Of a DNA stretch of 33,959 nucleotides, positions 15,549 through 33,959 are shown piece by piece. Origin of the DNA: Candidatus Eiseniibacteriota bacterium. Its GTDB lineage: Bacteria; Eisenbacteria; RBG-16-71-46; CAIMUX01; VGJL01. A program made the position numbers and the translations under genes. The stretch spans positions 1 to 33,959 of the forward strand of contig JBHGAY010000040.1 of the NCBI GenBank assembly GCA_041946735.1, read 5' to 3'. The notes beneath the pieces were generated by a model. It did not search any database and had not been told where the DNA came from. It was given only the letters and a program-made list of their open reading frames with translations. The stretch's first letter is position 1; each line of letters opens with the position of its first letter.

Positions 15549-15584
15549 TTGACATCGTCCCCTCGGTTATGTAACCGTTTACAT
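15549..15584 (+). promoter_or_regulatory. Promoter -35 (TTGACA) with a LacI-type operator overlapping the -10 region
   Basis: TTGACA at 15549-15554. Near-perfect palindrome ATGTAACCGTTTACAT at 15569-15584 has a central CG and fits the LacI-family pattern TGWAANCGNTTWCA. It lies about 100 nt upstream of the LacI gene. Confidence 0.8.
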
Positions 15585-15687
15585 GCTTCCGGACGGTGCC
15601 GCGCCCGGTCCCCGGGCTACCCGATCTTCCGCCCCGTCTGGCGTCGCCCGCGCCGGTAGCTTCGGCCTCTCTCGGGGGGAGCTTGCC

Positions 15688-16848
15688 GTGGCCACAGTTC
15701 GAGACGTCGCGCGCGCCTGTGGACTCTCGATCGCTACGGTCTCGCGCGTCTTCAACGGCAGCGCGAACGTCAGCGAGGAGACGCGTGCGCGTGTCCGCAA
15801 GGCGGCCGAAAAGCTCGACTACTATCCCAACTCCGCCGCGCGCAGCCTGACGACCAGCCGCACACACACGATCGGGGTCCTCCTTCCCGATCTCTACGGG
15901 GAGTTTTTCTCCGAAGTCATCCGCGGCCTCGACTACGCCGCGCGCCAGGCTTCGTTGCACATCCTGCTTTCCAGCGCGCACAACGACGGTGAAGCTCTCC
16001 TCGCCGCCGCTCGCTCGTTGCGGGGTCGGGTCGACGGTCTCGTCGTCATGGCCCCCGATTCGGGTTCGGCCGAGGCGATCCACAGGATCGCCTCGCAGTT
16101 CCCCGTCGTTCTCCTCAATCCGGGAACGAGCGCCACTCGCTGCAGCACGATCTCAATCGACAACCGGGAAGGAGCGCGATCCGTGGTCGCGCATCTCGTT
16201 CGCCTGGGACACCGGAGGATCGCGATCATCCTGGGGCCGCGCGGGAACATCGACGCGCAGCAGCGCCGGGAGGGATACCGCCGGGCCCTGGCGGCGGCGA
16301 GGATCGCGCCAGCCGTCGCGCTCGAGATCCCCGGGGACTTCACCGAAGCGGGCGGGTACCGCGCCGGGAAGCTTCTCCTCCAAATGCAACCTCGCCCTTC
16401 GGCCGTCTTCGCCGCGAACGACAACACCGCCATCGGACTCCTCGGAGCCCTCCGCGAGGCCCGCATCCGCGTGCCGCAGGACGTCGCAGTGGCGGGATTC
16501 GACGACATCGCCATCTCGAAGTACGTCACTCCGCCGCTCACGACGGTGCGGGTGGACGCCTATGGGTTGGGGGAGCGTGCGATCGCACTCTGGCTCCAGA
16601 TCGCCGCTCCGCCGGGAGGCGGGCGCCCGCCGAACGGCGGCGCCCCGGCGCGGCACGTCGTGTTGGCAACGGCGCTCGTCGTCCGCAAGTCGTGCGGCTC
16701 ATCGGCCGGATCGTTCAGGCTCGAAGGAAGCAAGCGGGCGGGAGGCCGCCGCGTCTCGCTCGTCGCCGATGCCACGAACACGTCCGATCCTCTGCGGGGG
16801 CGCTCGGCGCCGTCGCAGCCACGATCGCTCCGGAGGTGCTCGACATGA
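15688..16848 (+). CDS. LacI-family transcriptional regulator
   Basis: (M)ATVRDVARACGLSIATVSRVFN HTH, YYPNSAARSL, GHRRIAII, SAVFAANDNTAIG, VPQDVAVAGFDD, PPLTTV, LVVRKSCG. GTG 15688 follows GGGGGAG. Confidence 0.95.
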   Translation: MATVRDVARACGLSIATVSRVFNGSANVSEETRARVRKAAEKLDYYPNSAARSLTTSRTHTIGVLLPDLYGEFFSEVIRGLDYAARQASLHILLSSAHNDGEALLAAARSLRGRVDGLVVMAPDSGSAEAIHRIASQFPVVLLNPGTSATRCSTISIDNREGARSVVAHLVRLGHRRIAIILGPRGNIDAQQRREGYRRALAAARIAPAVALEIPGDFTEAGGYRAGKLLLQMQPRPSAVFAANDNTAIGLLGALREARIRVPQDVAVAGFDDIAISKYVTPPLTTVRVDAYGLGERAIALWLQIAAPPGGGRPPNGGAPARHVVLATALVVRKSCGSSAGSFRLEGSKRAGGRRVSLVADATNTSDPLRGRSAPSQPRSLRRCST

Positions 16849-31099: not shown

Positions 31100-33663
31100 G
31101 CGATACGGATCCGGATCTCCTCTTCGACAACGGCTACGGGGGCTTCGCCCGCGACGGCGCCTCGTACGAGATCCGGCTCGACTTCCGCGCCGGCGATCCG
31201 GCCGACGCGCGCCGCCCGCCGCAGCCCTGGTGCAACGTCGTCGCCAACGAGCGCTTCGGCTTCCTCGTCAGCGAGAGCGGCGCCGGCTTCACCTGGAGCG
31301 GCAACAGCCGCCTGCGGCGCTTGACGCCCTGGTCGAACGATCCGGTCCTCGATCCTTTCGGCGAGGCGCTCTACATCCGCGACGAGGAGAGCGAGGCGTA
31401 CTGGTCGCCGCTGCCGGGGCCCGCCCCGGCGCGCTGCCGCTATCGCGTGCGACACGGCTTCGGCTGGTCATCCTTCCATCAGGAGGCGCATGACTCGATC
31501 GCGATCGAGACGACGATGTTCGTCCCGCCGAACGATCCGGTGAAGATCGTCCGCGTGACGATCGAGAACCGCGGCGATCGCGCGCGCACGCTCTCGCTCT
31601 TCTCCTACGCGCGGCTGATCCTGGGCGGCGATACGTTCGAGACGGCGGGATTGGTGCAGACCGATCTCGACATCGACGGCGGCAAGCCGTTCCTCTGGGC
31701 GCGCGGTCCCGCCAACCGGTGGATCGACGACGATCCTGGCGGGCCGGTCGTCTTCGCAGCCTGCGTCGCGGACCGCTCGGCGCAGCGCCGATTCTCCTGC
31801 GACCGCCTCGCTTTCCTCGGGCGCAGCGGGACGCCCGAAGCGCCTGCCGTCCTCGCGAACGGCCATCACCTCGACGGCGCCGTGTCGATCTCGCGCGGGT
31901 CGCCGTGCTTCGCGATGGAGGCGACGGTCGAGATCGCGGCCGGCGCGTCCTCCACCGTCAGCTTCCTGCTCGGCGAGGAGCCGTCGATGGAGAAGGCGCG
32001 CGAGCGGGTCCTCTTCTTCCACCTCCTGGGCACGATCCCCACGGCGCTGGACGAGGCGCGCTCGTTCTGGACGGGACTCGTCTCGGGGCTGCGCATCGAG
32101 ACGCCCGAGCCGGCGCTCGACCTGATGGTCAACGGCTGGCTCGCCTACCAGACGCTGTCGTGCCGTCTCTGGGGACGCTCCGCGTTCTACCAGTCGGGCG
32201 GCGCGTTCGGCTATCGGGATCAGCTCCAGGACGCGGCGGCTCTGCTCGCGCTCGATCTCGCTCGCACGCGCGCCCAGATCCTGCTGCACGCCGCGCATCA
32301 GTTCGAGGAGGGGGACGTCCTGCACTGGTGGCATCCGCCGGGCGGCTGGGGAATCCGGACCCGCTTCGCAGACGATCTCCTCTGGCTGCCCTACGTGACT
32401 GCGACCTACGTCGCCTGGACCGGCGACCTCGGGATCCTGGAGGAGCGCGTCCGCTATCTGACCGCTCCGAGCCTGCCGCCCGGCGAAGCGGAGTCGTACC
32501 TGCTCCCCGCCGATTCGGGCAAGAGCGGGACGCTCTACGAGCACTGCGCGCGCGCGATCGACCTCGCCCTCGCGCGCCGCAGCGAGCGCGGCCTGCCGCT
32601 CTTCGGGACGGGCGACTGGAACGACGGGATGAACCGCGTAGGGAGCGAAGGCAAGGGGGAGAGCGTCTGGATGGCGTTCTTCCTCTATGCGGTGCTGAGC
32701 GACTTCCTGCCGCTCTGCGAGCGGTTGGAGGAGGACATCGAGCGGGCCGGGCGCTATCGCGTCGAGCGGGAGCGGCTCCGCGAGGCGGCCGAGGATCACG
32801 CGTGGGACGGCGAGTGGTACCGGCGCGGCAGCTACGACGACGGGACGTGGCTCGGCTCGCGCGAAAGCGACGAATGCCGGATCGATGCGCTCGTCCAGGC
32901 ATGGGCCACGATCTCGCGAGCGGCCGAGCCCGGGCGGGCGGAGGAGGCGCTGCACGCCGTCGAGGAGCACCTGGTCGATCGCGAGGCGCGGATCGTCAAG
33001 CTTCTCGCGCCGCCGTTCGACCGCACGCCCCACGATCCCGGCTACATCAAGGGATACCTGCCCGGCGTCCGCGAGAACGGCGGGCAGTACACGCATGCGG
33101 CGCTCTGGGTCGTGCGCGCGGCGGCGGAGCTGGGATGGAACGAGCGGGCGATGGAGCTGCTCGCGATGCTCCTGCCGGCTCTGCACGCCGATACGCCGGA
33201 GAAGGTGGCGGTCTATCAGGTCGAGCCGTACGTCGTCGCGGCCGACGTCTATGGCGAGCCGCCGCACAAGGGGCGGGGCGGCTGGACCTGGTACACGGGA
33301 TCGGCGGGCTGGATGCTGCGCGTCGCGCTCGAGTCGATCCTCGGCTTCCGCGTGGAGGGCGGGCGCGAGGCGGTGATCCGTCCCTGCGTGCCGCGCGCGT
33401 GGGAGCGCTTCTCGATCGACTGGCGCGCTCCGGACGGCGTCACTCGCCTGGCGATCCTATGCGAGAACCGCGCGCCGGGGTCCGGAGGGACGGAAGCTCG
33501 GGCGACTGGACCGGGACGCGGCTGCAAGGTGATCGCCGCCGAGATGGACGGGCAGGCGGTGCCGGTGTCGGACGGCGCGGCGCGCGTGCCGATCCCGGCC
33601 GGCGGCGGCACGCACGAGGTGCGGATCGTCTTCGAGCCGATCGCGGCGGGAGGCCCCGAGTGA
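31096..33663 (+). CDS. GH94 glycoside phosphorylase (NdvB/ChvB C-terminal phosphorylase-like; probable 1,2-beta-oligoglucan phosphorylase), 855 aa
   Basis: [71 protein letters not shown] (catalytic Asp), [37 protein letters not shown]. Confidence 0.9.
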
Positions 33664-33959
33664 GTTCCGTATCGCTTCGCTTCCCTGCCGGGTTCCTCTG
33701 GGGGGCTGCGACGTCTGCCTACCAGATCGAGGGATCGCCGCTGGCGGACGGCGCCGGCCCCAGCATCTGGCACCGCTTCTCGCACACTCCGGGCCGGATC
33801 GTCACGGGGGAGACCGGCGACGTCGCGTCCGACCATTACCGCCGCTGGCAGGAGGACGTCGAGCTGATGGCCGGGCTCGGCCTTCGCGCCTATCGCTTCA
33901 GCATCTCCTGGAGCCGCGTCCTGCCGGCCGGGACGGGCGCGGTCAACCAGGCGGGCCTC
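33660..33959 (+). CDS. GH1 beta-glucosidase, 5' part only (truncated by window end)
   Basis: GTG 33660 overlaps the GH94 stop and translates to [25 protein letters not shown]...SIWHRF...[37 protein letters not shown], the GH1 N-terminal signature. Absent from the ORF track. Confidence 0.95.

Follow-up and report, generated by a model that had tools for sequence, protein, structure and literature searches.

How members of the Fibrobacteres-Chlorobi-Bacteroidetes (FCB) group outside Bacteroidia capture polysaccharides without SusD is a question on which a locus of a Candidatus Eiseniibacteriota bacterium bears. The DNA analyzed here, referred to as the window, is 33,959 nucleotides (nt) long and is the entire contig C35 of the source genome (4.89 Mb in 72 contigs; completeness 94.8%; a script called 3,621 genes). 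An earlier note, made from the letters alone, had described a co-oriented block of eleven genes in this window and proposed that it is a polysaccharide utilization locus (PUL), probably for beta-1,2-glucan. All eleven open reading frames (ORFs) are indeed on the + strand in the order it gave. Six of the ten junctions in the block are 4-nt stop/start overlaps, and gaps of ~190 and ~170 nt lie on either side of a gene named for the TWG motif of its product. A regulator, a TonB receptor and carbohydrate-active enzymes are co-located, as in a PUL.

Our preferred reading is that LacI represses this locus, that its genes serve to scavenge beta-1,2-glucan, and that a large protein of 1128 amino acids (aa), its tail predicted to be held by a PorV-like barrel, would act as the surface partner of the importer. 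We place the probability of this reading at about 0.6. That the window carries a real beta-1,2-glucan locus of a known kind is, as judged from sequence, very probable, and the catabolic part by itself is ordinary. It is the outer-membrane module that appears to be undescribed, with a predicted anchoring on the barrel and a putative role in capture. We found no description of this trio of genes in the open-access literature, outside of which most subscription papers lie.

The outer-membrane trio

The module consists of three adjacent genes on the + strand. The first (18734..21388) encodes a TonB-dependent receptor with an N-terminal CarboxypepD_reg-like domain, a plug and a barrel (PF00593, PF07715 and PF13620, all over cut-off). 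It falls outside the SusC/RagA subfamily, with TIGR04056 scoring 65.7 bits against a cut-off of 368.25 and matching the N-terminal part only. The second (21385..24771) encodes the secreted 1128-aa protein, which belongs to no named family and is predicted to contain a beta-supersandwich with an Asp-rich insert, a linker helix, Fn3/Ig-like and further beta-sandwich domains, and a variant tail of type IX secretion system (T9SS) type. The third (24834..25940, with a start perhaps at 24885 or 24939) encodes a PorV/PorQ-family outer-membrane barrel, recognized by NF033709 (185 bits versus 90) and by a profile match to PorV (6H3I_F, E 2e-15).

A scan of GTDB genomes with the 1128-aa protein yielded 381 relatives, of which the best 80 (63-78% identity) were used; locus counts given below refer to this closest clade. 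A locus was considered informative for a position when its flank was long enough, and 38 loci had full flanks. Among informative loci, the receptor gene is directly upstream of the gene for the large protein in 73 of 75 cases, and the barrel gene is directly downstream in 73 of 73. Conservation of gene order, a check named in the earlier note, was thus found in the best 80 of the 381 relatives. Records titled Ca. Eisenbacteria, Krumholzibacteria, Ignavibacteria, KSB1, Calditrichaeota, Latescibacterota or unnamed bacteria supplied the closest orthologous loci.

The large protein has no sequence match in Pfam, NCBIfam or the PDB, in the copies searched, and no named cluster occurs among its 30 Atlas matches. 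Its family is large, comprising 4,040 clusters (50% identity) at E<=0.001 and 598 at 1e-30. Because this partner family is unnamed, PUL predictors based on susC/susD would miss such loci. Distant paralogues were sampled by picking 20 of ~120 tail matches on long contigs and adding the only two loci that a distant homologue recovered from metagenomes. The trio was recognized by eye at 16 of these 22 loci, and fixed thresholds detected the receptor for 14 and the barrel for 15 of 23 proteins. The source genome contains three trios, one in the window and paralogous ones on contigs C11 (L082:6039-13103) and C13 (L083:7393-13577). Neighbors of the C13 trio include a GWxTD protein, a small barrel and an EB_dh-domain protein.

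The locus had been called SusD-less, and no SusD (PF07980, PF14322, PF12771) was found in the source genome by a search whose positive control gave a signal. PF07980 was also missing from all 41 related genomes (the sample used for SusD and tail searches), and the lack is therefore a lineage trait, not one specific to the locus. There is no tandem susC-susD pair with a lipoprotein: the gene after the receptor has no SusD match, and no lipobox was found in the 60 homologues of its product that were checked. A SusD fold in one of the unnamed proteins, which the earlier note had regarded as evidence against its proposal, did not appear in the large protein, which has no match to a SusD hidden Markov model and whose predicted structure is almost entirely beta. 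None of the 50 matches listed by a wide fold search is a SusD chain; this excludes nothing alone, and residues 680-960 were barely covered. The proposal that proteins bearing a C-terminal domain (CTD) may stand in place of Sus lipoproteins is plausible, and a lineage without SusD yet with the trio fits such a replacement without proving it.

The AlphaFold2 model of the large protein, built with 70 sequences, has a predicted local distance difference test (pLDDT) score of 89.9 and a predicted template modeling score of 0.83. In this model, a mutarotase-like supersandwich (residues ~10-530) carries an acidic insert (23% Asp+Glu) and a linker helix, and an Fn3/Ig-like domain comes next. Foldseek with the whole model gave only matches with template modeling (TM) values <0.1. 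The best fold matches for these domains are to glycoside hydrolase family 15 (GH15) enzymes, in their N-terminal beta domain and a small C-terminal one (Z 19.1-20.4, root-mean-square deviation (rmsd) ~3 A, 237-265 aligned residues). GP2 of Cgs is also similar (Z 18.6); the helical catalytic barrel of GH15 and Cgs enzymes is missing from the model. Sequence identity of the supersandwich is 80% among members of the glucan clade but 32% to other clades, and 12 of its aromatic residues are clade-specific, including F49, Y176, F460 and Y477 in model numbering.

The tail of the large protein matches the fold of a PorZ chain (Z 12.6, rmsd 1.8 A over 92 aligned residues), and the type A CTD model TIGR04183 has no match on this protein. 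T9SS-type tails were found on 254 of the 3,621 proteins of the source genome (7%), four of which are of the variant type. A PorV-family gene lies directly downstream for three of the four variant-tail proteins versus one of the 250 with a generic tail. A cargo gene followed directly by its own barrel gene, as at 73 of 73 close loci, is an arrangement like that of type B cargo. No NCBIfam model, one for a type B CTD included, matches the 1128-aa protein, and the barrel matches the PorV/PorQ model and no PorP model; a genome-wide search for PorP (PF11751), in which the control was silent, gave no informative result.

A complex between barrel and tail was predicted with a score of 0.93, the best control being 0.00. 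Between runs, at least 82% of the contacts coincide, and the pLDDT of the partners is at least 79. The mark set for this score, which the complex passes, is reached by 116 of 157 solved pairs and by 2 of 215 mismatched pairs. The predicted interface uses residues that are invariant in both alignments.

Other T9SS components are encoded elsewhere in the source genome. These include the SprA translocon (492 bits versus 200; contig C14) and PorU (596 versus 420). TonB_C genes are also present. Eight PorV-family barrels are over the family cut-off, and the window barrel is one of them; it scores below the cut-off of the PorV equivalog NF033710 (65 versus 250). Contig C4 carries a gene for a 4311-aa tail-bearing giant followed directly by one for a 543-aa PorV-family protein whose C-terminus is OmpA-like by eye (C4:65170-79837). 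Forms of 616-625 aa like the variant-tail protein of contig C12 occur at loci L104-L106.

Substrate, transport and regulation

The assignment of beta-1,2-glucan, whether linear or cyclic, as the substrate is well supported by four sequence markers, i.e., two GH144 proteins, a Cgs-type GH94 and a Lin1841-like binding protein, and by the conserved gene order. The first GH144 (25967..27667, + strand; PF10091) is a secreted endo-beta-1,2-glucanase homologue with a generic CTD, whose best PDB match is XcSGL (8XUL, 378 bits). In the part of the XcSGL study available (PMC12102758, Table 1), this enzyme is active on beta-1,2-glucan and inactive on the listed cellulose, barley glucan, lichenan, laminarin, curdlan and pustulan. 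The same source defines the SGL clan by E239, F286 and Y367 (XcSGL numbering), with which E248, F293 and Y360 of the window protein align, i.e., the clan-defining residues are kept. The second GH144, on contig C40, scores 515 bits against XcSGL.

The GH94 gene (31096..33663, + strand; PF17167) encodes the phosphorylase part of a Cgs-type enzyme. Its product matches the C-terminal phosphorylase domain of the Agrobacterium Cgs (AtCgs) with 691 bits, versus 249, 69 and 30 bits for cellobiose, laminaribiose and cellodextrin phosphorylases; LpSOGP is distant (26 bits). D375 and D510 lie opposite D2393 and the catalytic D2528 of AtCgs (PMC10901819, as far as available). The preceding gene, GH94N (30182..31099, + strand; PF06165, 191 bits), encodes the first supersandwich (GP1) of such a phosphorylase as a stand-alone protein. 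That GH94N and GH94 are two genes, as the earlier note had it, is correct for this genome, but a single fused gene is present in 34 of 35 relatives, so the two-gene form is local.

In the fused relatives, the linker is either ~180 residues long or short. According to the accessible part of PMC10901819, AtCgs has a dispensable, Rossmann-like insert at the GH94N/GH94 junction, which LpSOGP does not have. The source genome is without this insert and has a stop/start overlap at that place. DNA of the locus is present in run X1 (soil, possibly the source) and in run X2 (industrial waste, a separate study), with no RNA run among those listed, and the overlap is identical in both. A frameshift or misassembly was considered and ruled out, as run X2 covers 30844-33095 with zero differences; the split is a true, local gene fission. 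At loci of the Ignavibacteria and Calditrichaeota type (L019, L051, L058 and L080), the two-sandwich GH94 is replaced by a shorter one with a single supersandwich (33-38% identity).

The block ends with the 5' part of a GH1 beta-glucosidase gene (33660..33959, + strand; PF00232), truncated at the contig end. The remainder begins at base 1 of contig C40 (C40:1-1080), where tblastn matches form complementary halves. In run X1, a single contig of 24,800 nt bridges window positions 33842-33959 and C40 from base 122, with a gap of 3 nt. The matches of GH1 are general beta-glucosidases, from which a preference for sophorose is not readable. Past four unrelated genes on C40, the opposite strand carries an ATP-binding cassette (ABC) operon, which encodes a 1086-aa F5/8-domain protein and, 11.6-16.4 kb into the contig, the second GH144, two permeases and a binding protein. 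The four intervening genes suggest a rearrangement. In several relatives (e.g., L037, L044, L047 and L059), these ABC/GH144 genes come straight after the core.

The binding protein has Lin1841, a sophoro-oligosaccharide binder (PMC13731917, in the part available), as its best characterized match (234 bits; the next characterized match has 127), and the uncharacterized ABC binding protein 3UOR scores higher (420 bits). The window itself contains the ATPase, of the MalK/UgpC sugar ABC type (28932..30185, + strand; PF00005, OB_MalK, TOBE_2). The full surface-to-cytoplasm pathway that the earlier note had read into the block is therefore supported as a route, but the block alone is incomplete, as the ABC binding protein, permeases and second GH144 are on C40. 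The stretch between GH1 and the converging ABC operon (L081:1105-8194) encodes a GNAT-SCP2 acetyltransferase, a small protein with CxxCH motifs, a 1290-aa tail-bearing protein and a 241-aa unknown. The 1086-aa protein at the end of the operon (L081:8315-11575), found at 11 of the 80 loci, combines its F5/8 domain with a weak six-hairpin glycosidase match and is, by sequence, a candidate for a further beta-1,2-glucan enzyme.

Only two PF10091 genes, neither of the synthase type, were found in the source genome, and no OpgG/D family gene or Cgs cyclase was detected in it; the genome has one GH94 locus. The absence of synthase-type PF10091 and OpgG/D genes favors scavenging over recycling of the cell's own glucan.

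Two further secreted proteins are encoded in the block. One (630 aa; 16845..18737, + strand) probably has two domains like carbohydrate-binding module family 9 (CBM9) and a generic FlgD_ig/T9SS-type tail, and its gene is directly upstream of the receptor gene at 68 of 68 informative loci. Of the CBM9-like/CTD label given earlier, the FlgD_ig part is over cut-off (28.9 bits; cut-off 27), whereas CBM9_1 (PF06452, 17.5 bits; cut-off 23.4) and TIGR04183 (21.5; cut-off 23) are below it and leave the label weak; the GH144 tail scores 19.9 with TIGR04183. In the Atlas, the first matches of the 630-aa protein are 0.95 to CBM9 clusters, with a recognition value of 2064 that is below the mark of 2300, and the PDB contains no sequence match. 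The other protein (300 aa; 27856..28758, + strand) is a ConA-like jelly-roll with a Cys-rich linker and a short C-terminal TWG tail, as seen from its model (pLDDT 97.3) and fold matches (Z 13-15.5 to the thrombospondin C-domain, CBM66, PL7 and lectins, with no nearer assignment). It is likely, from this model, to be an accessory glycan binder. It has no T9SS CTD. Its tail belongs to a pattern, [ST]WGx[IVL]K, which ends 39 proteins of the source genome, many behind a Cys-rich linker (window copy 28720-28758), and which is matched by no Pfam or NCBIfam model on the window protein.

The block starts with a LacI-family repressor gene (15688..16848, + strand; PF00356 and PF13377 over cut-off). The promoter with a LacI operator that had been proposed upstream of it is corroborated by conservation: the palindrome TGTAACCGTTTACA (15570..15583) recurs in 49 of 55 related loci, where it has at most two mismatches and lies <400 nt upstream of LacI. 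Control positions before the receptor (0/68), barrel (0/74) and GH144 (0/68) genes have none, which argues that the operator is not due to chance. In relatives, the palindrome is also found before the TWG (7/47) and CBM9-like (5/67) genes. The pattern has a single exact match in the 4.89-Mb genome, having been derived from that same site. A predicted -35 box, TTGACA (15549..15554, + strand), precedes it, and 36 of 50 aligned sites, the window site included, have a TTG[AG]C[AT] box 5' of the operator. The operator therefore sits over the expected -10 position. The -10 box is poor, and a consensus sigma-70 scan accordingly returned no promoters; a terminator scan gave 3 terminators versus 5.5 expected and was uninformative.

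In searches of the block proteins against Pfam and NCBIfam, scored versus family cut-offs, those over cut-off were LacI, the TonB barrel and plug, NF033709 (PorV_fam), PF10091, ABC_tran, PF06165, PF17167 and PF00232. At the 38 full-flank loci, GH144 is present in 38, LacI in 36, GH94 in 34, the TWG gene in 33 and MalK in 4. Clustering of 204 gap ORFs from related loci revealed no additional gene common to more than four loci. Just upstream of the promoter is a PF07100 gene (14925-15305; Anabaena sensory rhodopsin transducer family), which was not seen at the 80 related loci. Positions 1-14699 contain housekeeping-looking genes, which from their translations we take to encode TsaD, a GGDEF response regulator, a family B polymerase, PriA, a TPR protein, IlvC, Rho, release factor 1 and PrmC.

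A capture role and its alternatives

These components can be arranged into a pathway. LacI would bind the palindrome over the -10 position and be freed by a sophoro-oligosaccharide. The CBM9-like protein and GH144, which bear generic T9SS-type tails, would leave through the SprA translocon. The adjacent barrel would recognize the variant tail of the 1128-aa protein and retain it, in the way that cognate PorP/SprF barrels keep Type B cargo. GH144, by homology, would cut the glucan into sophoro-oligosaccharides, which the supersandwich of the large protein would capture and pass to the receptor; this is the weakest step. The second GH144, the Lin1841-like binding protein, the two permeases and MalK would together trim and import the products. 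The two-piece GH94 would then yield glucose-1-phosphate, and GH1 would finish the degradation to glucose.

Several observations weigh against this scheme. SusD is present elsewhere in 5 of the 40 genomes that carry the locus. The trio is missing at 6 of the 22 distant loci, and the fourth variant-tail protein of the source genome (592 aa, C12:77423-79201) has no adjoining receptor or barrel. No glycoside hydrolase was found among the nine neighbor proteins of the C11 and C13 trios that were scanned, the others being housekeeping-like by eye, and the unit is therefore not glycan-specific. The supersandwich fold is common, and sharing it shows no function. Since complexes of PorV with cargo CTDs have been solved (PMC10994853, in the part available), the high barrel-tail score may come from the predictor's memory of them. 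GldM (TIGR03517) had no match in the source genome or in 21 genomes, in a search whose positive control was also silent. On the catabolic side, the glucosidase in published beta-1,2-glucan clusters is GH3 and not GH1 (available parts of PMC8861115 and PMC13731917), MalK lies inside the fetched flanks of just 9 of the 80 loci, and the ABC operon on C40 has no operator match.

The large protein might instead be a structural or assembly partner of the receptor, i.e., a lid, stabilizer or folding helper that does not select sugars. We regard this as unlikely. In its favor are the C11 and C13 trios, the occurrence of variant-tail proteins in 40 of the 41 related genomes when a glucan-clade copy (E <1e-50) is found in just 12, and the presence in the locus of the CBM9-like protein and the jelly-roll, which are themselves likely to bind glycan. 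Against it are the identity of the supersandwich inside the glucan clade, which is higher than that of the receptor (49-64% overall), its clade-specific aromatic residues and its nearest folds, which occur in enzymes active on glucans; an identity pattern of this kind would, however, also result if the protein had co-evolved with the receptor. A surface enzyme of the mutarotase, lyase or transglycosylase kind, preparing the glucan for import, is improbable. Supersandwiches are catalytic in aldose epimerases and some lyases (Z 13-14 here), and many Asp and Glu residues are invariant. The best fold matches, though, are the non-catalytic N-domains of GH15, GH94 and GH65, the model contains no helical barrel, many of the invariant acids fall in the Asp-rich insert, which resembles calcium-binding loops, and no enzyme family matches.

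The remaining alternatives concern the substrate. Another beta-glucan, such as laminarin, cellodextrins or a mixed-linkage glucan, attacked by homologues of shifted specificity, is about as improbable as a surface enzyme, or slightly more so. GH1 is a broad beta-glucosidase, and CBM9 usually binds cellulose or xylan ends. Against this stand the four independent beta-1,2 markers and the margin by which the GH94 match to AtCgs exceeds those to the laminaribiose, cellobiose and cellodextrin phosphorylases. Recycling of periplasmic beta-1,2-glucans made by the cell itself is very improbable. The GH94 is of a synthase-derived type and the second GH144 is lipoprotein-like by eye, but no Cgs cyclase or OpgG/D gene was found in the 94.8% complete genome, and an outer-membrane receptor with a secreted GH144 would be sensible only for an outside substrate.

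Relation to known systems

The trio may have arisen independently as another solution to the problem solved by SusC/SusD, with a T9SS-delivered lid and capture protein sitting on its own barrel instead of on a lipid; the odds of this are evenly balanced in our view. Such a solution would be used across Eisenbacteria, Krumholzibacteria, Ignavibacteria, KSB1, Calditrichaeota and Latescibacterota. It would link type IX secretion to TonB-dependent uptake and extend the pairing of cargo with a cognate shuttle from PorP to PorV-like barrels. It would also mean that uncultured soil and waste bacteria eat beta-1,2-glucans made by other bacteria. The beta-1,2-glucan trio is the most direct test case, since its ligand can be predicted, its operator is defined and the cultured Ignavibacterium album probably has a counterpart.

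The closest described system is the GH144/IaSGT cluster of I. album (IALB_1177-1187), which shares with the locus a TonB-dependent transporter, two GH144, a Cgs-type GH94, a Lin1841-like binding protein, an ABC transporter and the proposed route (PMC8861115, in the part available). It differs in having the GH35 IaSGT and no beta-glucosidase. The available text of that paper contains neither the large protein nor the barrel, which may be among unlabeled genes in its Figures S1 and S12. A metagenome-assembled genome titled I. album (L058) has LacI, the CBM9-like protein, the receptor, the large protein (65%), the barrel, GH94 and GH144 in the same order, and its GH94 has a single supersandwich (36% identity). 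The type-strain cluster probably holds the trio as well. The clusters of Listeria innocua (lin1839-1843) and Chloroflexus aurantiacus (Chy400_4165-4178) likewise contain a GH94 phosphorylase, a sophoro-oligosaccharide binding protein/ABC transporter and a beta-glucosidase, with GH144 in Chloroflexus, but have GH3 in place of GH1 and, in the part of PMC13731917 available, no outer-membrane module. For a GH144/TonB locus of Xanthomonas, no description was found in the open-access literature.

With the SusC/SusD PULs of Bacteroidota, the locus shares a regulator, a TonB-dependent receptor, a partner gene directly downstream and surface and periplasmic carbohydrate-active enzymes. It differs from them in that the receptor is below the SusC cut-off, the partner is a non-lipoprotein, nearly all-beta and equipped with a secretion tail, an extra barrel gene is present, and an ABC transporter and phosphorolysis serve the inner membrane. 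For M. roseus, a SusCDE operon is named in the available part of the genome paper, which is silent on any such trio. The xylan locus of Rhodothermus marinus (Rmar_1067-1081; PMC6987092, available part) has the same outline, i.e., LacI, CTD enzymes, a TonB receptor (1070), a hypothetical protein with a Por tail (1071) and another hypothetical protein (1072). Its substrate is xylan and it also contains a susC/susD pair; the likeness is one of table outline.

In the T9SS, the gene of a Type B cargo is linked to that of its own PorP-SprF barrel shuttle (PMC12618676, PMC9143113, in the parts available), as the gene of the large protein is to its barrel gene. In PorV-CTD complexes, the tail is bound by the outer loops of the barrel as a surface anchor (PMC10994853, available part), as predicted here. 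In contrast to the Type B/PorP systems, the barrel of the window is of the PorV/PorQ family, the tail is a variant, type A-like one that no type B model matches, and a TonB receptor is linked to the pair.

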